A DNA stretch of 64,000 nt, taken from the NCBI GenBank assembly GCA_050174305.1, contig JBFXJZ010000009.1:34148-98147 (forward strand). The letters are read 5' to 3'. This document shows positions 50,632 through 62,333 of this stretch, piece after piece. The notes beneath the pieces were generated by a model. The model saw nothing but the letters and a program-made list of their open reading frames with translations, did no database searches and was not told the origin of the DNA. Origin of the DNA: Pyrinomonadaceae bacterium. Lineage in GTDB: Bacteria > Acidobacteriota > Blastocatellia > Pyrinomonadales > Pyrinomonadaceae. A program made the translations under genes and the position numbers. Positions within the stretch are counted from its first letter, which is position 1. Each line of letters opens with the position of its first letter.

Positions 50632-51696
50632 CTAACTGTCAAGTCGCTTTACTGCCTCAAGCATAAGCTCCGCGTCGGTTTCCGCGTAGATGTTTGTAAT
50701 GCTCATGTCCGAATGGGCAAAGAGATTCTGGACTATGAGGGGATTTGTATTTCTACGAATTAATTCGCTGGCAAAGTAGGTTCTTAAGTCGTGGAAATGA
50801 TAGTTTTCTTCTCTTGTGCCGTCTGGCTTGTTGATCTTGGCTCTTATGAGAGCCGGATGCCAGCGTTTTCGGAAATCGACAATTGGAAATGGAAGCTGTT
50901 TGTCGGCGATTAGGTCCCGTAAAACCGATGCCGCGGTTGCATTGATCGGTACGGATCGCGGAGGTCGTCCCTTCGAACCAATTACCCATACCCTTTGATT
51001 CTCAAAATCGATCACATCCTCGTTCAAAGCCAATAACTGGCCGCGGCGCAATGGCATGTTAACGGCCAATTGGACAAGCCTGTATAGCAGCTGATCGGAT
51101 TCGAGCTCCTTCCACAACGCTTTCTTCTGCTCGGTCGTAAGTAGGCGCTTTCGTGGTGGCGGCTCTGGAAGGGACTTTACATACTGCATCGGATTGCGAT
51201 CAAGAACGTCTTCCTCACAAGCGAGACTGAAGATCTTCGACAAAGTCGACATGATCCTATTGATGGAGGAAGGAGAGATCGAACTTTTCTTTTTTCGCTG
51301 GTTTTTCCCGTACTGAAGTTTGTCCCGGCAATCGCGACAATCCTGTGGCGTGATGGTGTGCAGAGGTTGATCCTTTAGGTTTTTCAAAAGGAGTTTTATG
51401 TAAAGATTCTTCGCCCCCTTATTGACGTTGTTTTGCTCTACATATTTTCGATAGGTTGTTTCTACGAAGTCTCCAAAAGTTAAAGTCGTATCCGCTTGTC
51501 CGAAAGATCTGTCGAATAGCCGCTTGACCAGTTGGCGCTCGGCGAGTTCAGCTTCTTCCTTAGTACGGGCTGTCGGAATAACCTGATGAATAGTCTTATG
51601 CCCTTTAACTCGTCTGTATACCCACCAGCGAGCTGCTGCATACGCCGGATGCTTAGCGTTTATCCGCTTACCGTTATACTTCTTAAAAACTGACAT
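50632..51696 (-). CDS. Tyrosine site-specific integrase
   Basis: The C-terminal catalytic region has RRGQLLAL (Arg I), HFHDLRTYF (H-x-x-R) and AHSDMSITNIYA (His...Tyr). Confidence 0.9.
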   Translation of the reverse strand: MSVFKKYNGKRINAKHPAYAAARWWVYRRVKGHKTIHQVIPTARTKEEAELAERQLVKRLFDRSFGQADTTLTFGDFVETTYRKYVEQNNVNKGAKNLYIKLLLKNLKDQPLHTITPQDCRDCRDKLQYGKNQRKKKSSISPSSINRIMSTLSKIFSLACEEDVLDRNPMQYVKSLPEPPPRKRLLTTEQKKALWKELESDQLLYRLVQLAVNMPLRRGQLLALNEDVIDFENQRVWVIGSKGRPPRSVPINATAASVLRDLIADKQLPFPIVDFRKRWHPALIRAKINKPDGTREENYHFHDLRTYFASELIRRNTNPLIVQNLFAHSDMSITNIYAETDAELMLEAVKRLDS

Positions 51697-51700
51697 ACGC

Positions 51701-51955
51701 TTAGTAATTCGCTAACCAGGCATCCACCTCAGTTCTATTAAAAGTTGGCCGGCCCACTCCGTGGAACGGTAAACCATTTTTTCGCATCCATCGATTGATC
51801 GTTGCACTAGATTTCTTCAGATATTTTGCGACTTCGGACTTCGTCATAATCTGGGGCGGCTGAGATGAGTGAATTGCTTTCTCGATTGCTCCCGCGACAG
51901 AGGTATCGATCAAACGAATCAGCTCAGCTTTTTCTATCGTGATAATTTCAACCAT
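51701..51955 (-). CDS. Excisionase / MerR-like HTH DNA-binding protein
   Basis: 84 aa, MTKSEVAKYLKKSSATINRWMRKNGLPF. It lies immediately upstream of the integrase. Confidence 0.7.
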   Translation of the reverse strand: MVEIITIEKAELIRLIDTSVAGAIEKAIHSSQPPQIMTKSEVAKYLKKSSATINRWMRKNGLPFHGVGRPTFNRTEVDAWLANY

Positions 51956-52222
51956 TTCCTGAACCTCCGATCACCAATTGGCAAAAAATGTGCCTCGCCA
52001 AAAAGCCATGAAAATAACCGGCATTGGCCACAAAAGTCGCGAAAACGAGCCACTCGACGCAGTTTTGTGCCACACAAAGGATGTTTATAAACCAGCCTGA
52101 TCAAGAGTGATGATCTTTGAAAGTTATGAGCGGAAAAAGAGGACAAAAAGAATACTGCAACCAACCTGCAACCAAGTCAAAGAAATGGAGCTTCCAGCAA
52201 TCGCTGAAAGCCCCATGTTTAT

Positions 52223-52299
52223 TGGTCGGGACGACAAGATTTGAACTTGCGACCTCTCGCACCCCAAGCGAACGCGCTACCAGACTGCGCTACGTCCCG
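52223..52299 (-). tRNA. tRNA-Pro (anticodon GGG), canonical
   Basis: Reverse complement: CGGGACG TA GCGC AGTCTGGTA GCGC G TTCGC TTGGGGT GCGAG AGGTC GCAAG TTCAAAT CTTGT CGTCCCG A CCA. All four stems pair, and C1:G72 is typical of Pro. Confidence 0.9.
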
Positions 52300-52343
52300 A
52301 AATTTCGATTTTTAGCTTAGATTTGGCGGGTGACTTTGTCAAC

Positions 52344-52844
52344 TCACTGATTTCTTAGGTGTTCGGCCGCCCGTTCCGTCTGATCGGTCTTCAACATCTC
52401 ACGAAGCTCAAGCAATTGTGCGCCTAGCGCCCGCAGCGCCTCGCGGCCTTCCCTGGACAGGCCTTCAGACGCCATCGCTCGCGAAAGTGTCTCCTCCGGC
52501 AATTCGAGGTCGAAAAGAGCCGGATCCGCGGCCGGTGAACTTGCAGGACCTTCAGCCGCTGCGTCAGGCTTGCTTTTGCCGTTTTCCTTCAACTCCGACT
52601 GAAGCTTTTTTCGTGCCCCGGCGATAGTGTAGAGCTCATCATAAAGCAGCTCTTTTATCCGAAGTGAGATCTCGACGTCCCGCCGTCGATAGCTTCGTTG
52701 GCCAGATCGGTTCTTTTGCGGGGCGAGTTGCGGAAATTCCGTCTCCCAATAACGGAGGACATGGGCCTGAACGTCGAGGATGTCGCATACCTCGCCGATC
52801 TTGAAGTATATTTTCTCAGGTATTACTACAGGTTCCCGATTCAT
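52344..52844 (-). CDS. MerR-family transcriptional regulator
   Basis: [25 protein letters not shown]...[12 protein letters not shown] (MerR HTH). Confidence 0.85.
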
Positions 52845-52927
52845 TACGATAGACTGTGTGTTAAAGTTCTTTATCGGTTAGTCGCCGTTATTGTATGTAT
52901 TTACGTGGTTTGTGTCAATAGGTTGAA

Positions 52928-53884
52928 ATGGTTTCGGAGTTTGACTTCATAAAGAACATTAAGGCGAAATACGGCCTTCGCGGTATCGGCGACGACTGTG
53001 CGATCCTCCCGAAAAACGACGAGTCAGACACCGTGATCACCGCCGATTTACTCGTCGAGGACATCCATTTTCGTCTCAATTGGACCTCGCCCGGATTGTT
53101 GGGAGCGAAAGTGTTGGCGGTTTCACTCTCGGACATTGCCGCGATGGGTGCCGAGCCGACGTGGGCGATGCTGTCGTTCGCCGTAACCGACTCGGTTTGG
53201 AATAGCGATTTCCTCGAGAAATTCTACGAAGGATGGTTTACGCTGGCCCGTCGTCACAACGTCGAACTGGTCGGAGGCGATGTTTCGCGAACGGCCGGAA
53301 AGATCGTTTTCGATTCGATCGTCGGCGGCAAGGTACCAACCGGAAAGGCAATCTTGCGGAGCGGGGCCCAGGTCGGCGACTCGATCTTCGTCACCGGTCC
53401 GCTTGGCGGAGCAGCCGGCGGCCTGATGATGCTCGAATCCGGTATCAAATACGGGACGGCTGACCCCGCCCGGCAAGCTTTGATAACGAAACAATTGCGA
53501 CCGGTGCCCAGGATCGAGATCGGTAACCAGCTCAGGGAAGCGGGCCTCGTGGACACGATGATCGACCTGAGCGACGGGCTCTCCTCTGACCTACGACACA
53601 TTTGCAATGCCAGCCACGTCGGTGCTCGTCTATACGCGAATGACATTCCGATCTGCCCTGATCTGACAAAGATCGGTGTCGCCCACGACCAGGCCCTTAC
53701 ATTGGCGCTAAACGGCGGCGAGGATTTCGAGCTTCTGTTCACATCAAAGGACGCTGAAATTTCTTTGCCCGGCCAATCGGACATCTACCGTATCGGTGAG
53801 ATCACCGCAAATGAAGGGGTGATTGAAGTTATCGGTAGCGAAGAGTTCGAGGTACTGCAGCCTGGTGGCTATCGCCATTTCTAA
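52928..53884 (+). CDS. thiL: Thiamine-monophosphate kinase
   Basis: EFDFIKNIK..GIGDDCAIL..ADLLVEDIHF, GGDVSRT and DLSDGLSSDL (AIR-synthase-like fold). Confidence 0.9.
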   Translation: MVSEFDFIKNIKAKYGLRGIGDDCAILPKNDESDTVITADLLVEDIHFRLNWTSPGLLGAKVLAVSLSDIAAMGAEPTWAMLSFAVTDSVWNSDFLEKFYEGWFTLARRHNVELVGGDVSRTAGKIVFDSIVGGKVPTGKAILRSGAQVGDSIFVTGPLGGAAGGLMMLESGIKYGTADPARQALITKQLRPVPRIEIGNQLREAGLVDTMIDLSDGLSSDLRHICNASHVGARLYANDIPICPDLTKIGVAHDQALTLALNGGEDFELLFTSKDAEISLPGQSDIYRIGEITANEGVIEVIGSEEFEVLQPGGYRHF

Positions 53885-53912
53885 CTTTTTTGCTCACCGC
53901 GAAAATTTTTGC

Positions 53913-53943
53913 TTGACACGGAATTTTGACCTGTGTTTATAAT
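53913..53943 (+). promoter_or_regulatory. Sigma70-like promoter candidate
   Basis: TTGACA (53913-53918) and TATAAT (53938-53943). The spacer is 19 bp, longer than optimal. Confidence 0.25.
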
Positions 53944-54156
53944 CCTCCCTGCTTCGCACCGGCGGAGTAATTTTTTTGGAGATAGTTTGATGATTCGAAG
54001 ATCGATACATAGCATCACGACCCTCACAGGCACGTCGACCGCGTTAGATATGCGGTTCGATATGGCCTGGGACGGAGCGGTCTGCTTCGGACTCGAACAG
54101 CCGAATTATCAACCCAAACAGCGCGGCACGGATCGCGCGGTAGAACCAGATTAAAA

Positions 54157-54287
54157 CAGCGGGAGCGGCGTTCCCGCTCCCGAAACATCGAAAGCAGGAC
54201 GAGCATATCGTCCGGTGATTTTTAGGAGCGGTTACGCCGGGGATATTGGAAGCCCGAGAGTAGCCGCTCCTTTTACTTTCGATGTTT
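54157..54287. ncRNA. Candidate structured RNA: hairpin plus three-way junction, class unknown
   Basis: Hand-folded. An 8-bp hairpin GGGAGCGG/CCGCTCCC (54161-54181). P1 is a 12-bp helix AAACATCGAAAG (54183-94) / CTTTCGATGTTT (54276-87). It encloses P2 GGACGA/TCGTCC (54197-54213) and P3 AGGAGCGG/CCGCTCCT (54224-54271). The strand is undetermined. Confidence 0.25.
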
Positions 54288-54312
54288 GACAACTGAATAG
54301 CCGCATTTATTT

Positions 54313-54384
54313 GTGACAAGGGGCAAGTGACGAGTGACTAGCCGATAGCATTGCTCATCACTTGTCACTCGTCCCTAGTCACTC
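54313..54384. repeat. Heptanucleotide tandem-repeat hairpin 1 (GTGACNN units)
   Basis: Left arm GTGACAA GGGGCAA GTGACGA GTGACTA. Right arm TCACTTG TCACTCG TCCCTAG TCACTC, the complementary heptads. A T7 run and then tRNA-Arg follow. Confidence 0.8.
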
Positions 54385-54391
54385 TTTTTTT

Positions 54392-54469
54392 GGAGACGTA
54401 GCTCAACGGAATCAGAGCGCCTCGCTTCGAACGAGGGGGTTGGAGGTTCGAATCCTTCCGTCTTCGCCA
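54392..54469 (+). tRNA. tRNA-Arg (anticodon TCG)
   Basis: GGAGACG TA GCTC AACGGAATCA GAGC G CCTCG CTTCGAA CGAGG GGGTT GGAGG TTCGAAT CCTTC CGTCTTC G CCA. Canonical cloverleaf with CCA encoded. Confidence 0.85.
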
Positions 54470-54481
54470 ATTTTCAAACAC

Positions 54482-54557
54482 GGGGATGAATGCAAAGCGT
54501 CGCGCGTCCAGTTTTTCAAGCTGGCCCTAGCGGGTTCGAGTCCCGCCTTCCCTACCA
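54482..54557 (+). tRNA. tRNA-Glu-like (anticodon TTC), non-canonical D region
   Basis: 76 nt that fit standard numbering. The T arm GCGGG TTCGAGT CCCGC and the anticodon arm CCAGT TTTTCAA GCTGG are fine. However it has A8 instead of U8, D-loop AAGCGTCG without the G18-G19 pair, a 13:22 A-C mismatch and a 6:67 T-T mismatch. Confidence 0.5.
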
Positions 54558-54559
54558 GG

Positions 54560-55063
54560 TCAGAGGATCAGTTCGTAGTGAAATTCGTCTTCGGTGATCC
54601 CATCGTTCCAAACTTTTTCGGTTACGTGGGTAAGCGAGAATCCAAACTTCTGATTGGCTGATCTTGACGCAAGATTTGACGCCCGATGGGAAATGATGAG
54701 CCGTGCGACGGTTGGATGCTCTCGAGCCCAGTTGATCCTCGCCTTGTAGAACATTTTAGATAGTCCCTTTCCTCTAATTTCTGGGTCCAGCCACGATCCC
54801 CACAGAATGGCAGTGCGGTTACTCGGGTCGTCCCGGTAGACCGATACGCCCGTGATACCCATCGGCAGCGTCCGAGCGAACAGTACAAAGATCGCGACTG
54901 CCTCATCCTTAAGCGATTCTTGCCACTGGACAACTGACTGATCTGCCTCTCGGTCGTAGTTCGAACCAAACACAAGTGGGTCTGTCGCAAGGGCTTTGAG
55001 GCGGATCTGCCTGAAGATCTCCCAATCGTCCTTTTCCAGTTTTCTGATCGTATATTCAGACAC
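54560..55063 (-). CDS. GNAT-family N-acetyltransferase
   Basis: 168 aa from GTG 55063, with acetyl-CoA motif A WLDPEIRGKGLSKMF. The 259-aa track ORF reads back through three tRNA genes, so it was trimmed. No obvious RBS. Confidence 0.6.
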   Translation of the reverse strand: MSEYTIRKLEKDDWEIFRQIRLKALATDPLVFGSNYDREADQSVVQWQESLKDEAVAIFVLFARTLPMGITGVSVYRDDPSNRTAILWGSWLDPEIRGKGLSKMFYKARINWAREHPTVARLIISHRASNLASRSANQKFGFSLTHVTEKVWNDGITEDEFHYELIL

Positions 55064-55086
55064 TGGGCAAAATATAACAGCACTAC

Positions 55087-55161
55087 TTCGGGGTCGTCTA
55101 ACCGGCAGGACGGCTGGCTCTGAACCAGTAGATGGAGGTTCAAATCCTTCCCCCGAAGCCA
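55087..55161 (+). tRNA. tRNA-Gln (anticodon CTG)
   Basis: TTCGGGG TC GTCT AACCGGCA GGAC G GCTGG CTCTGAA CCAGT AGAT GGAGG TTCAAAT CCTTC CCCCGAA G CCA. U1:A72 and G73 are as in bacterial tRNA-Gln. Confidence 0.85.
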
Positions 55162-55171
55162 ACATATTTAC

Positions 55172-55249
55172 CAGAGCGTTCCGCAGAAGGCTATACGGGC
55201 TTGCCTTGGAAGCAAGTGTTCGCAGGTTCGAATCCTGCCGCTCTGACCA
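55172..55249 (+). tRNA. tRNA-Pro (anticodon TGG)
   Basis: CAGAGCG TT CCGC AGAAGGCTAT ACGG G CTTGC CTTGGAA GCAAG TGTTC GCAGG TTCGAAT CCTGC CGCTCTG A CCA. C1:G72; there is a 13:22 C-A mismatch. Confidence 0.75.
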
Positions 55250-55257
55250 TACTTCCC

Positions 55258-55332
55258 GCCGGGATAGCTCAAATGGCAAGCAGCATCTGTCTTGTAAACA
55301 GAAGGTTCTGAGTTCAAATCTCAGTCCCGGCC
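55258..55332 (+). tRNA. tRNA-Thr (anticodon TGT)
   Basis: GCCGGGA TA GCTC AAATGGCAAG CAGC A TCTGT CTTGTAA ACAGA AGGTT CTGAG TTCAAAT CTCAG TCCCGGC C. It has a 13:22 C-C mismatch. This is the only array member without an encoded CCA. Confidence 0.7.
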
Positions 55333-55339
55333 AGTTCAC

Positions 55340-55416
55340 GCACGCGTGGCCAAAACGGCAAAGGCGCCGGTCTTAGAAACCGGATATTGAAGGTTCGAAT
55401 CCTTCCGCGTGTACCA
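55340..55416 (+). tRNA. tRNA with Leu anticodon TAG but a class-I (short variable arm) body
   Basis: GCACGCG TG GCCA AAACGGCAA AGGC G CCGGT CTTAGAA ACCGG ATATT GAAGG TTCGAAT CCTTC CGCGTGT A CCA. The variable region is 5 nt, whereas bacterial tRNA-Leu normally has a long extra arm. The D arm and anticodon stem resemble class-II Ser/Leu tRNAs. Confidence 0.6.
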
Positions 55417-55432
55417 CTTTGTTAGTTGCGAC

Positions 55433-55497
55433 TTTCGAGTTTCAAGTTTCGGGATCAACTTCTTTTGACTCCAGACTTGGAACTCGAAACTCGAAAC
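55433..55497. repeat. Heptanucleotide tandem-repeat hairpin 2 (TTTCNAG units)
   Basis: Left arm TTTCGAG TTTCAAG TTTCGGG. Right arm CTCGAAA CTCGAAA. It lies upstream of tRNA-Cys. Confidence 0.75.
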
Positions 55498-55505
55498 TAA
55501 TTCGG

Positions 55506-55582
55506 GCGGGTATAGCCAAGCGGCCAAAGGCGGCGGTCTGCAAAACCGTTAATCATCGGTTCAAATCCGATTACCCGCTCCA
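55506..55582 (+). tRNA. tRNA-Cys (anticodon GCA)
   Basis: GCGGGTA TA GCCA AGCGGCCAA AGGC G GCGGT CTGCAAA ACCGT TAATC ATCGG TTCAAAT CCGAT TACCCGC T CCA. U73 is the Cys discriminator. Confidence 0.8.
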
Positions 55583-55655
55583 ACTGTTTCGAGTCCCGGC
55601 TTCAGCCGGCCAACGCGAAAAGAACTGCCAGCTAAAGCTGGTACTCAAAACTTCA

Positions 55656-55733
55656 TGTGGATCGTAGCTCAATCGGCAGAGCACCTCACTGTGAATGAGG
55701 CCGTTGCAGGTTCAAATCCGGTCGATCCACCCA
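55656..55733 (+). tRNA. tRNA-His (anticodon GTG) with encoded G-1
   Basis: G(-1) TGGATCG TA GCTC AATCGGCA GAGC A CCTCA CTGTGAA TGAGG CCGTT GCAGG TTCAAAT CCGGT CGATCCA C CCA. It has the G-1:C73 pair. One A-G mismatch sits in the T stem, and 1:72 is U:A. Confidence 0.75.
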
Positions 55734-55753
55734 AAACAACAGTGGCGAGTGTT

Positions 55754-55815
55754 CAGTGGTCAGTGATCAGAGACTTCCGAGTGACTGACCACTGGTCACT
55801 GGTAACTGACCACTG
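55754..55815. repeat. Heptanucleotide tandem-repeat hairpin 3 (NNCACTG units)
   Basis: Left arm CAGTGGT CAGTGAT CAG. Right arm GTGACTG ACCACTG GTCACTG GTAACTG ACCACTG. It lies upstream of tRNA-Asp. Confidence 0.8.
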
Positions 55816-55820
55816 ACGAA

Positions 55821-55896
55821 GGGGCCGTGGCAGAAAGGCGTATGCACTTCGCTGTCGACGAAGACGATGACGGTTCGAATCCGTTCGGTCCCGCCA
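55821..55896 (+). tRNA. tRNA-Asp (anticodon GTC)
   Basis: GGGGCCG TG GCAG AAAGGCGT ATGC A CTTCG CTGTCGA CGAAG ACGAT GACGG TTCGAAT CCGTT CGGTCCC G CCA. G73 is present; there is a 13:22 mismatch. Confidence 0.75.
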
Positions 55897-55907
55897 GTTT
55901 CACAAAA

Positions 55908-55982
55908 GGACGCTTAGCTGAGACAGATCAGCGGCGGCCCGAAAAGCCGAAGAGCTTGGCGCGATACCAAGAGCGTCCACCA
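55908..55982 (+). tRNA. tRNA-Phe-like (anticodon GAA) lacking canonical T-loop and D-loop signatures
   Basis: GGACGCT TA GCTG AGACAGAT CAGC G GCGGC CCGAAAA GCCGA AGAG CTTGG CGCGATA CCAAG AGCGTCC A CCA. All stems pair except 27:43. The T-loop is CGCGATA (no T54-Psi55-C56), the D-loop has no GG, and position 33 is C. Confidence 0.45.
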
Positions 55983-56157
55983 ATCACTCAAAAAACCCGC
56001 CCGCTCACGCAGGCGGCACTGACAGGAGGCAAAACCTATGTCTGCACTTACGAGTTGCAACATTATCGCGACGTGACTGTTCAGCTTTTCCTAGTTCGCT
56101 GAAAGTTCGTCGCAAGAAACCAACATCTTTCAGCACATCAACATTGAGGAAAAGAAA

Positions 56158-56505
56158 ATGAGCAAGAAATACCACGTTCAAAAGAAGGAGTTTCTGAACA
56201 TGTTCCCGACATGGCGAGCCTACATAATCGCTTCCGTCGAAGACACCAGCGAGGTTTCGCGGTGCTGCAGCGATCACAGCGAGGCCGCCGGTCACGTTCA
56301 CTTCGAACTCGCGTCCTGCCACGACGAGATCGAACTTCACTTCTCGCTCGCGACCGCGGAAGAACGTGACAACAGCCTCTACAAGGCGAATAAACTCGCC
56401 GAGGTTATAGCCGCCTTCCGCGATGCGATCGAGAAGGAGATCGCGATCATAAACGAACGCCACTCGACGCAGCAGCAAGCTCGCGCATCGTCGGCCGTTC
56501 ACTGA
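56158..56505 (+). CDS. Hypothetical 115-aa protein inside the tRNA array
   Basis: GAGGAAAAG RBS. It contains a Cys/His-rich stretch, CCSDHSEAAGHVHFELASCHDE. I prefer it over the overlapping 172-aa minus-strand ORF, which has no RBS and an odd composition. Confidence 0.5.
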   Translation: MSKKYHVQKKEFLNMFPTWRAYIIASVEDTSEVSRCCSDHSEAAGHVHFELASCHDEIELHFSLATAEERDNSLYKANKLAEVIAAFRDAIEKEIAIINERHSTQQQARASSAVH

Positions 56506-56523
56506 TTCTCCGACCCGTCGCAC

Positions 56524-56551
56524 CCGGCCGCTTCGATCGGCAAGCGGCCGG
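56524..56551 (+). terminator. Stem-loop after the 115-aa ORF (possible terminator)
   Basis: A 10-bp stem CCGGCCGCTT/AAGCGGCCGG with an 8-nt loop. The T-rich stretch starts only ~15 nt downstream, so this is a weak intrinsic-terminator call. Confidence 0.35.
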
Positions 56552-56779
56552 CACTGGTTGGAATTATTTAGTTTTCAAACATCACAACGTCTTACCTGAC
56601 TAAACGCGGATCTCGCGGGACCGGTGAGGACAAGGGAATGAACTAATACATACCTTGGCCCGCAACGGGCCTGTTCGTCCTTTGTCCGACGAAGCCGGCC
56701 CCGCACCGCGTTTGCCTACCGTTTTTGTGACAAGCTTTTTCAGCTTGTCGCCGCAGACTGGGAGGTCTGCTCTATTTGC

Positions 56780-56856
56780 CCGCCGGTGGCCAAGCTGGTT
56801 AAGGCACTCGCCTTTTAAGCGAGGGAGCGTGGGTTCGAATCCCACCCGGCGGACCA
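56780..56856 (+). tRNA. tRNA-Lys (anticodon TTT)
   Basis: CCGCCGG TG GCCA AGCTGGTTA AGGC A CTCGC CTTTTAA GCGAG GGAGC GTGGG TTCGAAT CCCAC CCGGCGG A CCA. It has an unusual C1:G72 and a Ser/Leu-like D arm. Confidence 0.7.
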
Positions 56857-56865
56857 TTCTGAAAA

Positions 56866-56949
56866 GGATGAAGGCGGAAGGTTGAAGGATGAAACAAAGA
56901 TTATTCACGATTAACCGTTCGTCCCTCATCCTTCATCCTTCATCCTTCC
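56866..56949. repeat. Heptanucleotide tandem-repeat hairpin 4 (GGNNGAA / CTTCATC units)
   Basis: Left arm GGATGAA GGCGGAA GGTTGAA GGATGAA. Right arm CCTCATC CTTCATC CTTCATC CTTCC. It lies upstream of tRNA-Met. Confidence 0.8.
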
Positions 56950-56951
56950 AG

Positions 56952-57026
56952 GGCGGCGTAGCTCAGCGGAAGAGCAAAGGTCTCATAAACCTTGGGTCGG
57001 AGGTTCAAATCCTCCCGCCGCAACCA
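56952..57026 (+). tRNA. tRNA with CAT anticodon (Met or Ile2), with a 1:72 mismatch
   Basis: GGCGGCG TA GCTC AGCGGAA GAGC A AAGGT CTCATAA ACCTT GGGTC GGAGG TTCAAAT CCTCC CGCCGCA A CCA. It has a G1-A72 mismatch and an initiator-like GCAACCA end, but only two G:C pairs at the base of the anticodon stem. Confidence 0.7.
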
Positions 57027-57052
57027 TTTTTTCGTACAATCAAGGAGGAACA

Positions 57053-58303
57053 ATGCCATATAACAAGCTAAATATCAGCGGAGGACAGGCTGATGTCCTT
57101 TCGTGGGTCACTCACGGGCTGGACTATCAGGAAGAGAATATGCTCCGCAATGTCTCGCGTCTGCCGTGCCTTTACAAGCACGTTGCCCTGATGCCGGACG
57201 CTCATCTTGGGAAAGGTTCGATGGTCGGGTCGGTCATCGCGACCAAAGACGCTGTTATTCCGGCGACCGTCGGTGTCGACATCGGATGCGGGATGATGGC
57301 CGTAAAGACACCGTTCAAGAGCGGGATTCTCGATCGCAAGATGGCGGAGTTCCGACACGAGATCGAGCGGGCCATCCCGACCGGTTTCAATGCCTACAAG
57401 GAATCGGTTGACGAAGCGTCGCGTTGGGAAGGATTCGATACGTTCGAAGATCTTCACCCGAAGATTCAGGACCGTAAGCGGAAGTCGATGGTCCAGCTCG
57501 GAACGCTCGGCGGAGGTAACCACTTCATCGAGGTCTGTCTGGATACCGAAGACAACGTCTGGCTGATGCTGCATTCGGGATCGCGAAACATCGGTAAAGA
57601 ACTTGCCGAACGACACATCGCGACCGCGAAAACGCTTCATAAGCTGAACGAACTTCCGTCGCCTGACCTGGCTTACTTCATCAAGGGTACCGACGAGTTT
57701 CAGGCCTATTGGCACGACCTCGACTGGGCCCAAAAGTACGCGATGAAGAACCGTGAGATCATGATGAAGCGTCTGATCAAATCGATCAATCGTATGTTTA
57801 ATGCAAGTCTCGACATCGACCACGCGATCGCCACCACCCCGTCCGCCGAGGCGGCGGCCACCCCTCCTAAGACAGGAGGGGAGCGTTCGCAGATCGAAAT
57901 TGTCGTTAACTGTCATCACAACTACGTCGCTGTCGAGGAGCACTTCGGCGATAAGGTTTACGTTACCCGAAAGGGTGCGATAAATGCCGAAACCGGACGC
58001 TACGGGATCATCCCTGGTTCGATGGGAGCGAAGTCTTTCATCATCCGCGGCCTGGGAAATCCCCAGGCGTTCAACTCGTGCTCGCACGGTGCGGGACGAA
58101 AGATGTCGCGTACTAAGGCGAAAGCGAAGTACACCATCGATGATCTGAAGAAGCAGACCGCTGGCGTCGAGTGCCGAAAGGACAAAGGCGTCGTCGATGA
58201 GATCCCCGCTGCCTATAAGGACATCGAGGAAGTCATGCGTGCTCAGGACGACCTCGTCGAGATCGTCGCCGAGCTAAAACAGGTCATCTGCGTCAAGGGG
58301 TAA
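57053..58303 (+). CDS. rtcB: RNA 3'-phosphate/5'-OH ligase RtcB
   Basis: MPDAHLGKGSMVGS, DIGCGM, GGGNHFIE, HSGSRNIG, NCHHNY, PGSMG and SCSHGAGR are all present. An AAGGAGG RBS precedes it. Confidence 0.92.
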   Translation: MPYNKLNISGGQADVLSWVTHGLDYQEENMLRNVSRLPCLYKHVALMPDAHLGKGSMVGSVIATKDAVIPATVGVDIGCGMMAVKTPFKSGILDRKMAEFRHEIERAIPTGFNAYKESVDEASRWEGFDTFEDLHPKIQDRKRKSMVQLGTLGGGNHFIEVCLDTEDNVWLMLHSGSRNIGKELAERHIATAKTLHKLNELPSPDLAYFIKGTDEFQAYWHDLDWAQKYAMKNREIMMKRLIKSINRMFNASLDIDHAIATTPSAEAAATPPKTGGERSQIEIVVNCHHNYVAVEEHFGDKVYVTRKGAINAETGRYGIIPGSMGAKSFIIRGLGNPQAFNSCSHGAGRKMSRTKAKAKYTIDDLKKQTAGVECRKDKGVVDEIPAAYKDIEEVMRAQDDLVEIVAELKQVICVKG

Positions 58304-58381
58304 ATGCAGAGGCCCGACCGTCAGGGAGGGCTTAACTATCAAGTCGATCGTTAAGCCCTAGCTCACGCGCGGGCTTCCGCA

Positions 58382-58411
58382 TTCGTCGCCGAACTGAAGC
58401 AGGTCATTTGA
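58382..58411 (+). pseudogene. Relic of a second rtcB 3' end
   Basis: TTCGTCGCCGAACTGAAGCAGGTCATTTGA (FVAELKQVI*) against the rtcB end 58262-58290, ATCGTCGCCGAGCTAAAACAGGTCATCTG (IVAELKQVI...). After the first codon, the four remaining nucleotide differences are synonymous third-position changes. Confidence 0.55.
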
Positions 58412-58434
58412 GCCAAAGTCTAACCGACCACGGG

Positions 58435-58537
58435 CGTCTCACGACCGTCTCACCCTGAGACGGGCTAACCTGTGTGATCAGTATGATTTGAGCTAAAAAT
58501 CGTCTCACTTGCAAAAAAACACCGCGCATCTGAGACG
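58435..58537. repeat. Cluster of five CGTCTCA / TGAGACG heptamers
   Basis: Direct copies at 58435, 58446 and 58501; inverted copies at 58456 and 58531. Two of the resulting pairs can form hairpins. Confidence 0.6.
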
Positions 58538-58763
58538 TTCGGCCGCTGTTCCATCGTAAGCTATTGCAACGAGTGGATTTAGGTGCCGGCACGTTTCCCA
58601 TTCCTATTTCTTGAGAGCGCGTTAGGACGAGCCATGCATTTTCAAAGAGCACATCGCCGATCGAACGATGATTGCACATTGTTGCATAGGCGGCACACTT
58701 AAGCAAGGGTTTTTTGATCGGACCAAACGATCACAGCCAAAATTTTAGAAGGAGGAAATACCA

Positions 58764-59222
58764 ATGAAAATAGCAGAAGCACTTATTCTACGATCGGATA
58801 TACAGAAGCGGATCGAGCAGCTTCGTCACCGGTTGACGAACAACGCAAAGGTCCAGGAAGGCGACGCTCCGGCGGAGAAGCCGGAGGCACTTTTGAAGGA
58901 GCTTGAAGGCTCCGCGGTCGAGCTTGAGAAGCTGATCAAGCGTATCAACAAGACGAATTCGGCAACCGAGTTTGCCAAGGGCCGAACGGTGACCGATGCC
59001 CTGGCCGAGCGGGATGTTCTCCTGCTTCGCAAGGGTGTCTACAGCGGGCTGGTAGACGCGGCAACGGTTACGCAGCAGCTTTACAGCCGCTCTGAGATCA
59101 AATTCGTCGCTACTGTGAACGTCGGCCGCACGCAAAAGCAGGCGGACGCGCTCGCCAAGCAGTACCGCGAACTGGACGCGAAGATCCAGGAATTTAACTG
59201 GAAGACCGATCTCGCCGGGTGA
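58764..59222 (+). CDS. DIP1984-family-like small helical protein (tentative)
   Basis: 152 aa, MKIAEALILRSDIQKRIEQLRHRL..NAKVQEGDAPAEKPEALL...RINKTN...ALAERDVL. The GGAGG RBS is clear. The family name is from memory of the sequence pattern and is unverified. Confidence 0.5.
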   Translation: MKIAEALILRSDIQKRIEQLRHRLTNNAKVQEGDAPAEKPEALLKELEGSAVELEKLIKRINKTNSATEFAKGRTVTDALAERDVLLLRKGVYSGLVDAATVTQQLYSRSEIKFVATVNVGRTQKQADALAKQYRELDAKIQEFNWKTDLAG

Positions 59223-59303
59223 AAATCCCGGCGACGGTAGGCGGAAAAGCGAAGGCGTATGTATAAGCCGTCAACTGGCTGAAAGTTGAATAAGCGATTA
59301 TTA

Positions 59304-59357
59304 CTCGCCAATGGTAGCGTCGAGGCGGCGCTCCGGGTTCGATCCCCGGTTCGTACA
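59304..59357 (+). other. tRNA-like fragment (D-arm-like plus T arm plus 3' acceptor strand, no anticodon arm)
   Basis: CGC CAATGGTA GCG ... CCGGG TTCGATC CCCGG TTCGTAC A. Only 13 nt separate the D-like and T arms, so no full cloverleaf can be drawn. Confidence 0.35.
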
Positions 59358-59497
59358 AATTATGCCCAGCACTGTCACAAGGGTAATGAGTAATGTTCAT
59401 TGTCACTACCTATACATAGATTCGCCTTTCCGCCGAGGGTGGGCTCGGGGAAAAGATCGGTTATTGTCAGCCGTCGCCACGGAATTAACGATGCATG

Positions 59498-59717
59498 GTC
59501 GCCAACGGCGACAAATAATATAGCCTAGGGTTGAGTGAGCGATGGCGAACGAAACCCTAGGTTAAGTTGATAGAGATTTCCGTCGCTGTAGGCGACGAAC
59601 ATCCTCGAACGTTTGTTGCTCGCCTTCAGCGAGCGGAAACCGTTTTATCGTGTTCCTAGGGATCCACTCGTTTTACTCGCTGCTCCCCATGCTTTAATAT
59701 TTGTCGCCGTTGGCGAC
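59498..59717. repeat. Palindrome-rich element bounded by ~20-bp inverted repeats (REP/MITE-like)
   Basis: The ends are GTCGCCAACGGCGACAAATA and TATTTGTCGCCGTTGGCGAC. Internal hairpins are CCTAGGGTT..AACCCTAGG, CGTCGC..GCGACG and GCTCGC..GCGAGC. Related words (ATGGCGAACG, CCTAGGGTTAAC, CCGTCAGG) recur at 251-290 and 58315-58380. Confidence 0.5.
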
Positions 59718-59762
59718 GGCAAAAGGAAAGATCAGGCAGATCTCAACGATTTTCGTTGAAAT

Positions 59763-60680
59763 CTACGCTTTGGCTTCGGAGGCTGCTCCCTTGAATGCCG
59801 GAGCGAAGACGTCGCGGGCAAATTCGTCGAGAGTGATCTTTGTCGTGCTTTGGGCGTCGCGGGTGGTGGTTTTCTGGATAATGCCGTTGCTGATGGCAGC
59901 GTCCATTTCCAAGTACGAATCCGCCACGCTCGGCGAAAAGCCCATCCCTAAAAGCGCGCCCCGATAATCCTGAGCGGAGAATTCGACGTATTGCAGATCG
60001 GGCTTGCCGATCGCAGCGCCGAGTATCCCGGAGGCTTCGCTAAATGTCAGGTCCTTCGGGCCCAGAAGTTCGCGGACCTCGGTTCCCGACGATCCCGGCC
60101 CCGCAAGTATCCCGGCGGCCGCTTCGGCGATGTCGGCCGTCGCGATCATAGCGACCGGAACATCTCCCTTGATCGCACCGCCGTTGATGCCGGCACTTTT
60201 TATCAGAGGGATCATGTAGAGAAGGTTCTCCATGAAGTAGGTCGGCCTCAAGACCGTCAAGGATAGGCCGGCGACCTGCTTCAATCGTTCCTCAAAATCA
60301 TGAAGCCCGGCGATGGGCCCGGTGCCCGACGGCAGGCTGCCGCCGACGCTGCTTAGCGCGACGACGTTAAGAGTGCCGGCCGCCTGGAGCGATCTGGCGA
60401 TGCTGTCAGCAAACTTTCGGTAGTCGGCCCGCAAGTCTTCGGCAGCGGGATTCGGCGGGATCATCGCGAAAACGGCGTCGGCGCCTTCGAACGCTTTTGT
60501 CAGAAATTCGGTATCGGCAAGATCGCCGGCCCATATTTCGGCACCTTTTTCGGCGAGCGGCTTAAGCCTCTCTTCGCTTCGGGCAATTGCTCGAACTTTG
60601 TGGCCGCGGTCGAGCAGACGCTCGGCGATGCCGCCCCCAACGTGGCCGGTCGCACCGGTTATAGTGATCAAATTCGGCAT
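59763..60680 (-). CDS. NmrA-like NAD(P)-binding protein
   Basis: ITITGATGHVGGGIAERLLDRGHKVRAIARS (Rossmann GxxGxxG); 305 aa. Confidence 0.8.
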   Translation of the reverse strand: MPNLITITGATGHVGGGIAERLLDRGHKVRAIARSEERLKPLAEKGAEIWAGDLADTEFLTKAFEGADAVFAMIPPNPAAEDLRADYRKFADSIARSLQAAGTLNVVALSSVGGSLPSGTGPIAGLHDFEERLKQVAGLSLTVLRPTYFMENLLYMIPLIKSAGINGGAIKGDVPVAMIATADIAEAAAGILAGPGSSGTEVRELLGPKDLTFSEASGILGAAIGKPDLQYVEFSAQDYRGALLGMGFSPSVADSYLEMDAAISNGIIQKTTTRDAQSTTKITLDEFARDVFAPAFKGAASEAKA

Positions 60681-60867
60681 TTTCTTAACCTCCCTGGTGT
60701 GTTTTCGGCCATCCTATCAGCCGGGGAGAGCGAGGTCAATGCCGGCCTGTCGCCACGTTCGGGGCGCCGTCGCCGGACGGAACCGAAAGTCCGGGACTCT
60801 TAGACCGACCTCGATACGGGTACTGAGAACCGGTTCAATTCCGGTCCAAAGTTTCATTTCGATCAGA

Positions 60868-61278
60868 TCATCCGGCCCGCCCGGCCCCACCGAGTTTCGC
60901 CCCGATCCATGCCATCGGAATGTATGCAAGGAGAAGGTCCATGGCGATGAACCAGGTTGGTGCCGGGATCATCATTGCCGCTGCGATACCGCCAAGCAGC
61001 GTTATCGCGCCAACAATGATGCCGACGGTCATTTTGCTTGAGACTGAGATCATTGCCGCGACCATCGCTCCTACCAGGCTGCCTAACGCATGGGCAAGGA
61101 AAGGCGCGATAAAGTGTTTCGCTTCCATCATCGGCATCGCGGCGTTCAGGCCTTCGACGGTGGTAAGGTCGGCACCAGCGGGCGGCGGGATCACCATCGG
61201 GCCGACCATAACGATCCCCATGTTTACGATGCCGCCGATCACAAGGCCGGCGATAACTGCAAGTATGTTTCTTATCAT
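60868..61278 (-). CDS. Small integral membrane protein
   Basis: 136 aa from MIRNILAVIAGLVIGG (ATG 61278), with four hydrophobic helices. I prefer it over the antisense 153-aa ORF. Confidence 0.55.
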   Translation of the reverse strand: MIRNILAVIAGLVIGGIVNMGIVMVGPMVIPPPAGADLTTVEGLNAAMPMMEAKHFIAPFLAHALGSLVGAMVAAMISVSSKMTVGIIVGAITLLGGIAAAMMIPAPTWFIAMDLLLAYIPMAWIGAKLGGAGRAG

Positions 61279-61621
61279 ATTGCCCTCACGGAAAAGCGCC
61301 GACCGTTCGGCAGCTGTCGAAAATCCAGATGGTTGGGTTGAGGGTTTGTTATACACCGAAATCCGACCTAAAGCCATCTAACGATCGGAAATAGCATAGA
61401 ACGTTGGCCTGTGCCGCTGACAGATCGGCCGAGCCGAGCAGACCGTGTTCCGGAAGCCCGGGATCCGGTCATTCAATATGTAGGATTAATTTCTCGTTAA
61501 CGCCCATATATTGTGCTTGCCTAAAATAAACATTTGATATTACATTACAGGTAAGGAAATGATGACGGGCCGGCCGCCGATGGCGGGCCGGCAAATACGA
61601 CCCGAGCCTGAAAGGAGGAAG

Positions 61622-62185
61622 ATGAGTTTGTTGACCGGACGAGTATTACTGTTGAACTTTTCGTACGAGCCTCTCGGTACTGTCGGCGTGGCTCGTGCTG
61701 TCTGCCTTTGGTTTCGCGGCGCGGTTTATGTCGAGGAAAACGACGGCGACAATTGTTTGCACTCGCCCTCGACGACATTTCCCGTTCCATCGGTGATCAG
61801 GCTTCGCCACTACATCCACGTCCGCCGTAACCGCCCCGAAACCACGATGAAGCGTGCCCGGGTTTACATCCGTGACCGCTACCGCTGCCAGTACTGCGGC
61901 GAGCATCGTCATGCGAAGGACCTGACGCTCGATCACATCCTGCCTCGGGCCCAGGGCGGCGAAAGCACGCCGGCCAATCTGGTGACCGCTTGCGTAAAAT
62001 GCAACCAGCGAAAGGGCAACCGTACGCCCGAGCAGGCCCGCATGCCGCTGCTCACGTCGCAAAAGCTGCTTCGCCTCGGCTTGGATCACGTCCTTCTTTG
62101 CCACTATGCCGAATCGCGGCCTGAGTGGAAGAAGTATCTGTTCATGGACGATAATGACGAGGCCGCGAACCGTGCGGCGGCCTGA
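61622..62185 (+). CDS. HNH endonuclease
   Basis: CQYCG...LTLDHILPRAQGG...NLVTACVKCNQRKGN. The start is set at MSLLTGR (ATG 61622), preceded by AAAGGAGG. Confidence 0.85.
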   Translation: MSLLTGRVLLLNFSYEPLGTVGVARAVCLWFRGAVYVEENDGDNCLHSPSTTFPVPSVIRLRHYIHVRRNRPETTMKRARVYIRDRYRCQYCGEHRHAKDLTLDHILPRAQGGESTPANLVTACVKCNQRKGNRTPEQARMPLLTSQKLLRLGLDHVLLCHYAESRPEWKKYLFMDDNDEAANRAAA

Positions 62186-62333
62186 TCTCCTTTCATTTTG
62201 CGTCTAATATGTTGAGAGGGCGGCTGGTCTGATCGATCGGCCGCTTCTTTCTTATTGCAAGTTCGCAAACGGACCCGTCTTTTCAGGACCGTTCGTGATC
62301 GGCTATTCAGTTGTCCAATGGGGTGGAAATGTT

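Follow-up and report, generated by a model that had tools for sequence, protein, structure and literature searches.

A chromosomal tRNA array associated with RtcB, an HNH protein and a candidate attenuator in Pyrinomonadaceae

Introduction

In cyanobacteria, the tRNA gene arrays that Santamaria-Gomez et al. defined as L-arrays have a conserved HNH gene beside the array and recurrent rtcB and dpsA genes nearby; in Anabaena, HNH, rtcB and dpsA are co-induced with the trn operon by translation inhibitors, and it has been proposed that RtcB repairs cleaved tRNAs while the tRNAs of the array top up or shield the pool (PMC8421152). TrcR represses the trn operon together with rtcB, two HNH genes and two GNAT genes (PMC10272220). 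A related definition, that of the tRNA array unit, calls for 20 or more tRNA genes, packed at 2 or more per kb (PMC4758250). Here, we describe a locus of this general kind from a bacterium of the family Pyrinomonadaceae (phylum Acidobacteriota), contained in a 64-kb stretch of DNA (hereafter the window, whose positions serve as coordinates throughout), in which a tRNA array is followed by the gene for the RNA ligase RtcB.

Several other described systems share parts of this arrangement. In Mycobacterium, plasmid arrays contain an embedded HNH gene (PMC5966550, PMC12803027); in M. avium, all four array types enclose a single HNH gene, and the arrays have been discussed as anti-defence devices (PMC12803027). 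Variable content, fast divergence and decayed copies are published hallmarks of accessory arrays (PMC8421152, PMC12803027). The tRNA sets of jumbo phages are described as supplemented by RtcB or Rnl ligases (PMC7824862), and Rsr, YrlA and RtcB make up a known bacterial RNA repair operon that, in Salmonella, is induced by damaged tRNA (PMC4201824, PMC7790460). The published survey of L-arrays found Acidobacteria with short accretive arrays only and no L-arrays (PMC8421152), and in the literature that we searched, no link between Blastocatellia and tRNA arrays was found.

The comparison of the window with dozens of related genomes makes it fairly probable, in our assessment, that the locus is a chromosomal accessory tRNA array of the L-array type that has merged with an RNA-repair set, namely, RtcB, an HNH protein and a small protein here denoted ORF115, and that serves a stress response gated by transcription termination. 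New with respect to the described systems are the phylum, the fixed chromosomal site, the fusion with Rsr, YrlA and RtcB, the ORF115 family, the candidate attenuator and the heptamer-repeat hairpins in the spacers.

Results

The tRNA array and its ligase

tRNA genes were called with ARAGORN, with Rfam as a second scan, and protein domains with Pfam and NCBIfam. The array comprises 10 sound and 2 degenerate tRNA genes on the + strand within 54392-57026; its tRNA genes and main protein partners are the following.

54392..54469, + strand: tRNA-Arg(TCG) (ARAGORN; Rfam, 63.6 bits)
54482..54557, + strand: degenerate tRNA-Glu(TTC)-like gene (Rfam alone, match 54482-54554, 31.8 bits)
55087..55416, + strand: tRNA-Gln(CTG), Pro(TGG), Thr(TGT) and Leu(TAG), with 7-10 nt spacers (ARAGORN, Rfam)
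55506..55733, + strand: tRNA-Cys(GCA) and tRNA-His(GTG) (ARAGORN, Rfam)
55821..55982, + strand: tRNA-Asp(GTC), then a degenerate tRNA-Phe(GAA)-like gene at 55908-55982 (ARAGORN for Asp; Rfam)
56158-56505, + strand: ORF115, a conserved small protein of 115 codons inside the array, absent from the list of the initial annotation of this DNA
56780..56856, + strand: tRNA-Lys(TTT) (ARAGORN; Rfam, 70.6 bits)
56952..57026, + strand: tRNA-Met(CAT), elongator-like (ARAGORN, Rfam)
57053-58303, + strand: RtcB RNA ligase (Pfam, 1.5e-120)
61631-62185, start possibly as early as 61559, + strand: HNH-domain protein (Pfam HNH/HNH_5), likewise absent from that list

The ten genes called by ARAGORN (Arg-TCG, Gln-CTG, Pro-TGG, Thr-TGT, Leu-TAG, Cys-GCA, His-GTG, Asp-GTC, Lys-TTT and Met-CAT) score 51-71 bits in Rfam, and the 3'-CCA is encoded within the array tRNA genes. 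Read from its sequence, tRNA-Met is elongator-like, with a G1-C72 pair and without the GGG/CCC anticodon stem. The Glu-like copy has the anticodon loop TTC and is 82% identical to an ARAGORN-called Glu(ttc) gene of a relative (L020); the Phe-like copy (Rfam match 55908-55979, 39.9 bits; anticodon loop GAA) is 92% identical to Phe(gaa) genes of relatives, with an odd T-loop and C33 in place of the near-universal U33. All 12 genes lie on one strand, with spacers of 7-95 nt except for two gaps that hold protein genes, that is, at the co-transcription distance characteristic of tRNA array units and L-arrays. With 12 tRNA or tRNA-like genes in 2.6 kb, the window array also has the density of an array unit, and relatives attain both the density and the size, with up to 28 tRNAs where both flanks are complete and more than 30 in L061.

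The Arg, His, Asp and Lys-UUU isoacceptors that the initial annotation had placed in the array are confirmed by ARAGORN and Rfam, whereas the Glu-UUC gene exists as the degenerate copy only. Equally accurate was its statement on the spacing of rtcB: tRNA-Met ends at 57026, exactly 26 nt before the rtcB ATG, with the ribosome-binding site AAGGAGGA. The metal-binding and guanylylation motifs of the encoded protein (DIGCG, GGGNHF, HSGSR and SHGAGR) align with those of the P. horikoshii enzyme, and the catalytic Cys, His and guanylyl-His motifs are intact, as in the ligase of the Rsr-YrlA-RtcB operon.

Conservation of the array-RtcB link across relatives

A protein-guided scan, with one genome per species, yielded 80 related loci (L001-L080) with RtcB identities of 68-87%, all from Pyrinomonadaceae or elsewhere in the Blastocatellia (Acidobacteriota); tRNAs and homologs of the window proteins were mapped across all 80, upstream counts being taken over the 67 loci with at least 3 kb upstream of rtcB and downstream counts over the 47 with at least 6 kb downstream. 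The survey of rtcB and array co-occurrence that the initial annotation had called for shows that the link is conserved. At least one same-strand tRNA lies upstream of rtcB in 52 of the 67 loci, at least three in 47 and at least eight in 35, and the last tRNA is within 300 nt of rtcB in 27. The co-localization is not due to chance, given that it recurs in dozens of species-level genomes.

The gene order in the near clade is tRNA-Pro(GGG), merR, thiL, leader, tRNAs, ORF115, tRNAs, (Rsr), RtcB and, farther on, HNH. In a distant clade, RtcB is located mid-array, in arrays of more than 30 tRNAs, with the order of about 18 tRNAs, RtcB, Pro/Arg/Gly/Cys, HNH, Phe...Gln and, sometimes, DIP1984 and Rsr thereafter. 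Array size varies from 0 to at least 28 tRNAs per locus. In 15 of the 67 genomes, RtcB is retained, as is HNH where the flank is long enough, with zero tRNAs upstream of rtcB; seven of these 15, with both flanks complete, have no same-strand tRNAs whatsoever. Because the tRNA-less genomes keep RtcB and HNH, these two genes can be viewed as the constant core of the locus and the tRNAs as its variable cargo. In several relatives, the array and rtcB are 1-5 kb apart, sometimes with opposite-strand genes in between.

The tRNAs of the array turn over rapidly. The usually single-copy, essential types His, Cys, Asp and Phe are missing from the arrays of many relatives and, therefore, must be encoded elsewhere in those genomes. 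Mean pairwise identity is 81-90% for array tRNAs compared with 93-96% for the non-array tRNA-Pro(GGG) of the same loci. In L076, the array Ser(TGA) gene is 75% identical to the non-array Ser(TGA) gene of the same locus, and the non-array Ser(TGA) genes of L064 and L076 are 98% identical to each other. The His gene differs at 7 positions between the window and its closest relative, L012 (~93% DNA identity), and its anticodon stem is broken in L012; odd anticodons, namely, Ile-TAT, Arg-GCG, Gly-ACC and Leu-AAG, occur among the relatives. Because they diverge faster than a housekeeping tRNA, vary in number and include decayed copies, the array tRNAs are probably spares.

The locus occupies the same chromosomal site, tRNA-Pro(GGG)/merR/thiL/array/.../HNH, wherever the upstream flank is visible, in 29 near-clade loci with thiL. 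The sporadic distribution and horizontal spread of L-arrays are thus not seen here, yet the RtcB alleles form a mosaic. Between the window and L012 (10001-11206), RtcB is 80% identical at the amino acid level, whereas MerR, GNAT, ORF115, DIP1984, NmrA and HNH are 95-99% identical and ThiL is 91% identical; the best RtcB match, at 87%, comes from a genome whose ThiL is only 55% identical. This mosaic identity of RtcB relative to the flanking genes suggests that the rtcB allele was replaced through recombination. In a viral collection, no close relative of the window RtcB was found, with 35-52% identity at best; in 9 of the 27 viral RtcB loci, the contig carries tRNA genes no farther than 8 kb from rtcB.

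As a separate observation, RtcB carries a hypervariable in-frame insertion just before the VNCHHNY motif (57818-57905 in the window, residues ~255-285). It occurs in L001, L002, L009, L011-L015, L020, L024, L034 and L043, ranges from 9 to 48 residues across loci (25 in the window), was called as heptamer repeats in six loci and, in L020, consists of tandem ADTPVRN repeats; in the window, the insert is palindromic DNA resembling that in the array spacers.

HNH, Rsr and YrlA

The HNH gene, 3.3 kb downstream of rtcB, makes the locus HNH-associated in the same sense as tRNA array units and L-arrays. It is present in 43 of the 47 loci and, in the near clade, is more conserved than RtcB in 29 of 33 loci, with median identities of 90% for HNH, 76% for RtcB and 54% for ThiL. 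This conservation above that of RtcB would not be expected of a homing endonuclease that is purely selfish, and it speaks for a cellular role. The window HNH protein is 46% identical to the HNH protein encoded inside a 28-tRNA array on an M. intracellulare plasmid, 38% identical to the one encoded directly upstream of a 20-tRNA array on a Nostoc plasmid, and 37% identical over the full length to the one in a cluster of 37 tRNAs and a transfer-messenger RNA (tmRNA) in L114. The N-terminal ~85 residues (LLLN-x-SYEP...) have no Pfam match and are conserved from Pyrinomonadaceae to the L114 homolog.

After HNH, here and in about 10 relatives, a 198-residue protein is encoded (62295-62891, + strand), with weak matches to the P-loop kinase families AAA_18 and AAA_33. 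The AAA_33 class includes polynucleotide-kinase-like enzymes, and this protein may be a further RNA-end-processing partner.

In many relatives, the 1-5 kb gap between the array and rtcB encodes a ~521-residue protein that we read as Ro60/Rsr from its N-terminal sequence and length, not from Pfam. By tblastn, Rsr is full-length in 22 of the 80 loci and fragmentary in L001 and L013, and nothing was found in the window; in the distant locus L115, precomputed Pfam matches identify a TROVE and vWA_Ro60 gene. Of the seven loci scanned, three (L017, L020 and L031) have a YrlA Y RNA that scores above the Rfam gathering threshold, located after the last array tRNA and before rsr. An Rfam scan of 50000-64000 of the window (E<=0.1) returned solely tRNAs and chance microRNA-like matches, with no Y RNA. 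By this comparison, the lineage of the window has lost rsr and YrlA while keeping RtcB.

ORF115, a protein family of tRNA clusters

ORF115 is encoded in 33 of the 67 related loci, and the window copy is 100% identical to a protein of a Pyrinomonadaceae metagenome-assembled genome. There are 109 close homologs of ~114 residues, with the motifs FLN, VEDT, (A/S)DC, R-x-NSL-x-K and F-R-D-A-I-E-x-E. When 1.84 billion representative proteins were searched with a profile, 631 clusters were recovered at E<=1e-3, 131 of them at E<=1e-10; nearly all members have 100-150 residues, and many of those inspected have Lys-rich C-terminal tails. ORF115 has no sequence match in Pfam, NCBIfam, PADLOC, PHROG or PDB, and none of the family members match Pfam, the only hits being two weak ones to PHROGs of unknown function. 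The AlphaFold model is of low confidence (predicted local distance difference test, pLDDT, 63.6), with four strands and a long helix, and a Foldseek comparison of the model with PDB gave nothing below E = 2.6.

Of the 11 distant members that were looked up, eight share a contig with tRNA genes of the same strand, in most cases a few hundred bases away at most. In L114, the ORF115 relative lies between two tRNAs of the 37-tRNA cluster, followed by HNH; in L116, L118, L119 and L122, it lies within small tRNA runs; in L117, it is 1.6 kb from a tRNA; in L115, it is directly upstream of the Ro60 gene; and in L113, it follows tRNA-Gln, beside a Macro-domain gene, with a 2',5'-RNA-ligase-like gene 5 kb downstream. 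The remaining three members (four loci, L120/L121, L123 and L124) have no tRNA nearby. Most of these distant contexts look phage-like; the viral collection yielded one weak ORF115 match only. No description of an ORF115-like protein was found in the array literature that we searched. On these sequence comparisons, ORF115 appears to represent a new, unnamed family that is often embedded in tRNA clusters. Two RNA features were noted in passing: the tmRNA (L114, 4303-4686) lies inside the 37-tRNA cluster of a phage-like contig, and a borderline match to small signal recognition particle RNA (L113, 251-329) overlaps the end of tRNA-Gln.

A conserved leader with predicted mutually exclusive pairings

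The spacer between thiL and the array is 508-552 nt long in most near-clade genomes, and shorter where tRNA-Tyr comes first. In the window, it contains the following elements, which were compared in 26 sequences (the window and 25 loci).

53913..53943, + strand: candidate promoter of the array operon (-35 TTGACA at 53913-53918, -10 TATAAT at 53938-53943, 19-nt spacer)
53990..54154, + strand: leader open reading frame (ORF) of 54 codons (MIRRSIHS...NYQPK...), with an upstream GGAG site and a stop 4 nt before H1
54160..54182, + strand: hairpin H1 (CGGGAGCGG / CCGCTCCCG), invariant and paired by RNAalifold
54195..54223, + strand: hairpin H2 followed by a U-run, variable in sequence and conserved in fold
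54224..54274, + strand: hairpin H3 (54224-54271) and UUUU, terminator-like (-29.8 kcal/mol, z = -4.8)

CTTGACA is invariant in 21 aligned loci, with a TGn/-10-like box 18-19 nt downstream, so that the 53913..53943 site can be inferred to act as the array promoter; a consensus promoter scan had missed it because its spacer exceeds 18 nt. Another TTGACA, at 54286-54291, was considered as the array promoter and rejected: in L003, L013 and L023, the first tRNA follows ~20 nt after it, and half of the sequences read TTGAAA. No promoter common to all genomes was detected between H3 and the first tRNA, and the array therefore appears to depend on read-through of H3.

Between the promoter and the GGAG ribosome-binding site lies a variable hairpin with a U-run. 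The leader ORF is open in all 26 sequences, with ATG or GTG 52-54 codons before the stop in 24 and a GGAG-type site ahead of it in about 21; most sequences keep the N-terminus MIR(S/R)SIHT and the (N/D)YQPK motif, 20 have GAT or ACT as the last sense codon, and the distance from the stop, whether TAA, TGA or TAG, to H1 is 4 nt in every case. All 26 genomes contain, once and without mismatch, a 22-mer that spans H1. H1 is followed by the strand AAACAUCGAAAG, and the complementary strand CUUUCGAUGUUU, with a conserved tail, comes after H3. H2 has 24 distinct sequences, of which 22 form clear hairpins (dG -3.3 to -11.7) followed by a T-run; it is marginal in L028, where it pairs into its own T-run, and in L030 (-0.1). 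The arms of H3 are invariant, and covariation is seen in its inner stem, in H2 and in a hairpin in the 3' part of the leader ORF.

The H1 3' arm (CCGCUCC) and the H3 5' arm (GGAGCGG) are complementary, and their alternative pairing (54173-54245) is the minimum-energy fold, at -26.5 kcal/mol, without the H1 5' and H3 3' arms. All elements of an attenuator, namely, a leader ORF, an intrinsic terminator and an exclusive antiterminator pairing, are therefore present and conserved in silico, and the leader may be a ribosome-mediated attenuator. The same leader also precedes one-tRNA operons (L015 and L025), which suggests that it controls the ORF115/RtcB unit as such. In the distant clade (L046, L048, L050, L054, L061, L064 and L067-L069), the 130 nt ahead of the first array tRNA contain a different conserved block, reading ...GAAGTGTGCCTCGAAGTGTGT...CTCTCTGCCTTCATCTGTTTTTTATCACA, which may represent the 3' end of an RNA gene or a leader of a second type.

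Heptamer-repeat hairpins in the spacers

All six period-7 tandem repeats of the window fall in the array, where they pair into four hairpins.

54315..54383, + strand: heptamer-repeat hairpin 1, just upstream of the first tRNA, with an equivalent in most relatives
55422..55500, + strand: heptamer-repeat hairpin 2
55740..55817, + strand: heptamer-repeat hairpin 3
56864..56949, + strand: heptamer-repeat hairpin 4

In each hairpin, one arm repeats a heptamer 3-5 times and the other repeats its complement, and the heptamer differs from spacer to spacer. Array spans account for 20% of the DNA of the 80 loci and contain 420 of the 524 period-7 repeats, a comparison that is not normalized per non-coding base; there are 146 distinct heptamers, a few of which recur in many genomes. 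The spacers are bimodal, with 239 of at most 20 nt, none of which has repeats, and 136 of 71-100 nt, 88 of which do. The arrays of Mycobacterium, Nostoc and L114 have no heptamer repeats, and heptamer repeats as such are known in other bacteria (PMC4679880). The hairpins might be processing signals, recombination substrates or mobile micro-elements.

The 64 kb contain exactly two copies of the 11-mer TTTGTGACAAG, at 54310-54320 and 56724-56734, both on the + strand. Each lies 46-72 nt ahead of the leading tRNA of an array segment and belongs to a GTGACAAG/CTTGTCAC inverted repeat. It was rejected as a conserved motif, being part of local hairpins and not clearly kept in other loci.

Occasional passengers and the neighbouring island

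Two further proteins are encoded in or next to the array.

54560-55063 (most likely extent, GTG start), - strand: GNAT acetyltransferase, antisense (Pfam Acetyltransf_3, 3.8e-12)
58764-59222, + strand: DIP1984/DUF6847 protein (NF038048, 200.3 bits against a cut-off of 70; PF20935, 1.4e-58; PDB 3kdq, 1.3e-40)

The initial annotation was right in placing an antisense GNAT inside the array and a DIP1984-like gene after rtcB, and in seeing no antitoxin-like gene beside the GNAT. The latter fills a 532-nt gap between the Glu-like tRNA and tRNA-Gln, and these tRNA genes bound it at 5 and 23 nt. It has no match in PADLOC and none to a PDB chain at E<=1e-3; PDB includes the toxin GNATs TacT, AtaT, KacT and ItaT. 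Its NCBIfam matches are sub-threshold, to RimL and antibiotic acetyltransferases, with RimL (PRK10151) at 25.6 bits against a cut-off of 184. The suggestion that it is simply a RimI/J-type enzyme thus stands as far as the domain matches go, which are of the RimJ/RimL type, but the RimL equivalog cut-off is missed: by its sequence, the protein can be classified as RimJ/RimL-like in fold class, not as an assigned orthologue. It is present in only 4 of the 80 loci and is antisense in all of them: L012 and L045 have it at the array position seen in the window, and in L026 and L036 it directly precedes the rtcB gene.

The DIP1984 protein belongs to its family over the full length, and 3kdq, the only solved relative, is annotated as 'uncharacterized'. 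The gene is facultative, being found in 6 of the 47 loci, at the distal end of the long arrays of L064, L071, L073 and L078 and also in L012. Outside Pyrinomonadaceae, DIP1984 genes are found in toxin-antitoxin/defence-type or unrelated plasmid neighbourhoods without tRNAs; a role as an array partner beyond the family was considered and rejected, because no tRNAs lie within 12 kb of the plasmid copies in Picosynechococcus and M. branderi, and the literature search on such a partnership returned one incidental mention only. The initial annotation had counted both proteins as possible parts of the module; with these distributions, they are best regarded as occasional passengers rather than core components.

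To the left of the locus lies an island, bounded as follows.

37676-39691, PbeC; 40167-42305, PbeA; 42312-44132, Orf5: Pbe-type genes
44537-49216, - strand: DndB, DndC and DndD
49349-50476: DndA
50632-51696, - strand: integrase
51701-51955, - strand: excisionase-like gene
52223-52299, - strand: isolated, non-array tRNA-Pro(GGG) (ARAGORN, Rfam)

G+C content falls to 42-48% from ~28 kb to 52.2 kb, whereas the array DNA is host-like, at 52-54%. The low-GC Dnd/Pbe island (28000-52222), a phosphorothioation-based defence island adjoining the array locus, ends at tRNA-Pro(GGG) and is absent from L012, the alignment of which to the window begins exactly at the tRNA-Pro gene. The array is separated from the island by tRNA-Pro, merR and thiL. 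A mobile origin of the array in the window genome was considered and rejected, as the integrase belongs to this separate island to the left of tRNA-Pro(GGG). The initial annotation had spoken of the array locus as a possible damage-tolerance island and had pointed to mobile tRNA arrays; the locus occupies the same site family-wide, and the real island is the Dnd/Pbe element next door.

Discussion

The picture of a repair-and-replace module drawn in the initial annotation survives in its outline: the array-RtcB link is conserved, Rsr and YrlA join RtcB in relatives, and the tRNAs look supernumerary. The idea of tRNA damage repair is sound, although not new, having already been published for cyanobacterial L-arrays and for phages (PMC8421152, PMC7824862). 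What has to be changed is the membership. GNAT and DIP1984 are not of the core, and the steadiest partners, HNH and ORF115, had been missed, as had the leader ahead of the array. By analogy with the published systems, the array and RtcB plausibly form a tRNA damage or translational-stress module.

The leader offers a route by which such a module could be controlled. By default, the operon would be kept down by termination within the leader. If a ribosome dwelt on the final codons of the leader ORF, it would cover the H1 5' arm and melt this hairpin, whereupon the freed 3' arm would pair with the 5' arm of H3 to form an antiterminator, and RNA polymerase would continue into the array. The cell would gain a pulse of spare tRNAs and RtcB, the latter would reseal tRNAs cut to 2',3'-cyclic-phosphate and 5'-OH ends, and translation could be sustained after tRNA cleavage or other translational stress. 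Decidedly more tentative than the merger of array and repair set is the joint proposal that a ribosome-sensing attenuator gates the spare-tRNA/RNA-repair operon and that ORF115 founds a widespread tRNA-cluster family of tRNA- or RNA-repair-associated factors; the latter part draws on the 631 clusters, which were obtained at 50% identity, on their homes in phage and bacterial tRNA clusters, and on the Ro60, HNH, Macro or 2H-phosphoesterase genes that members sometimes adjoin. If true, slow or stalled ribosomes would directly summon replacement tRNAs and RtcB, and ribosome status would be wired directly to tRNA supply and repair.

Several observations weigh against this interpretation. The tRNAs are dispensable, given that 15 of 67 relatives keep RtcB and HNH without them, and co-transcription of the array with rtcB is not universal, because of the 1-5 kb gaps in several relatives. 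The window itself has only 12 tRNAs, below the 20-gene definition, and lacks the adjacent Rsr and Y RNA of the Rsr-YrlA-RtcB operon; that its array tRNAs are spares is judged from the relatives and the 64 kb. The function of the module is inferred from gene neighbourhood and from the Anabaena and Salmonella analogies. HNH cleavage leaves 5'-phosphate and 3'-OH ends, which are not RtcB substrates. As for the leader, the terminator H3 is more stable than the antiterminator in the full-length RNA, so that the attenuator model relies on kinetics; no obvious run of regulatory codons is seen in the leader ORF, there is little covariation within the invariant arms, and an Rfam scan of the leader (E<=10) found no family match but chance microRNA-like ones. 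Instead of an attenuator, the leader may be a small independent mRNA ending at H3.

Much of the same evidence could be read as neutral erosion: a phage or plasmid array with HNH and ORF115 might have landed by a resident RtcB/Rsr operon and now be a decaying relic without any coordination with RtcB. The fast turnover of the tRNAs and the pseudogene-like copies would fit, as would the repeat hairpins and foreign genes inserted in the array (GNAT; a hydrolase in L012), the mostly phage- or plasmid-like contexts of HNH and ORF115 relatives, and the 15 of 67 genomes with RtcB and HNH but without any tRNA. Such a history is nevertheless unlikely in our view, because the array is kept at one site although ThiL is only ~54% identical across the family, most of the tRNAs are still well formed (51-71 bits), the gene order is partly conserved, and the extreme constraint on the leader, with an exact 22-mer in 26 genomes, would be hard to explain if it controlled junk. 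Still less probable is an ordinary housekeeping operon that contains the main tRNA genes of the cell and has RtcB downstream by chance. One strand and short spacers, the encoded 3'-CCA, the conserved chromosomal site and a G+C content of 52-54%, as in the host flank and unlike the low-GC island, are what one would expect of it. However, the absence of His, Cys, Asp and Phe from many relatives' arrays, the divergence of array tRNAs beyond that of the tRNA-Pro(GGG) control, the duplicate Ser(TGA) in L076, the unusual anticodons Ile-TAT, Arg-GCG and Gly-ACC, and the copies with a broken stem or C33 are not.

A module centred on the GNAT was also considered, starting from the remark in the initial annotation that some GNATs are toxins, with the acetyltransferase as a tRNA-acetylating toxin, the action of which the array and RtcB would buffer. 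Its position inside the array and the existence in the literature of GNATs that acetylate charged tRNA speak for it, and the two GNAT genes that share the TrcR regulon of Anabaena with rtcB and the trn operon (PMC10272220) are a mere lead for the window protein. But a gene found in only 4 of 80 loci, with tRNA genes directly on either side that leave no space for an antitoxin-sized neighbour, without a PADLOC match or a sequence match to solved structures at E<=1e-3, and with RimJ/RimL-type and antibiotic-acetyltransferase-type proteins as its best domain and family matches, makes a poor candidate, and we give this version very little credence.

The purpose of accessory arrays is debated, with stress buffering, the countering of tRNA-cutting defence and mere genetic baggage under discussion. 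The Pyrinomonadaceae locus provides a natural experiment on this question, in which, at one locus and across dozens of species, from 0 to more than 30 spare tRNAs surround RtcB and HNH while Ro60 and Y RNA come and go. The conservation of HNH above that of RtcB argues for a cellular role beyond selfish homing, and the conserved leader could reveal how arrays sense translation trouble.

Comparison with known systems

The arrays of cyanobacteria (the PCC 7120 trn operon) and of Mycobacterium are alike to the Pyrinomonadaceae locus in their dense, one-strand tRNAs of many specificities, in an HNH protein of the same family (38-46% identity) that is embedded or adjacent, in having rtcB nearby, and in the frequent insertions, deletions, pseudo-tRNAs and evidence of supernumerary genes. 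The known arrays, however, are sporadic and often plasmid-borne, whereas the Pyrinomonadaceae array sits at one chromosomal site family-wide, which points to vertical inheritance. Unlike in the known arrays, rtcB lies within the array or closes it; the array also houses ORF115, Rsr/YrlA and, in some loci, DIP1984; a leader ORF and a terminator are found in place of TrcR-type repeats, of which none are evident; and the spacers carry heptamer-repeat hairpins. The window array, in addition, has 12 genes only.

The rsr-yrlBA-rtcBA operon of Salmonella shares with this locus the location of RtcB beside Rsr (in 22 relatives), the order YrlA, rsr, rtcB (in three relatives) and the theme of a response to damaged tRNA. 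It differs in that the window is without rsr and YrlA, that the operon here contains real tRNA genes and not just a tRNA-like Y RNA, and that neither RtcA nor the sigma-54 activator RtcR was seen among the neighbours in Pfam and NCBIfam scans, no systematic search having been made. Phage tRNA clusters supplemented by RNA ligases, as in jumbo phages and in the T4-like repair of damage by anticodon nucleases (PMC7824862), likewise combine spare tRNAs with an RNA ligase, and ORF115 relatives occur in phage-like clusters; unlike those, the present locus has a cellular, chromosomal context with no adjacent phage genes, and viral RtcBs are only 35-52% identical to its ligase.

The leader, finally, invites comparison with ribosome-mediated attenuators, namely, the leader-peptide operons trp and his and the antibiotic-inducible leaders ermC and cat, with which it shares a short leader ORF with a ribosome-binding site, a U-run terminator and a segment with two predicted, mutually exclusive pairings. 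It departs from them in having no run of regulatory codons, in the length of the ORF (54 codons), in the stop 4 nt before the first hairpin and in what lies downstream, namely, tRNAs and RNA-repair genes.

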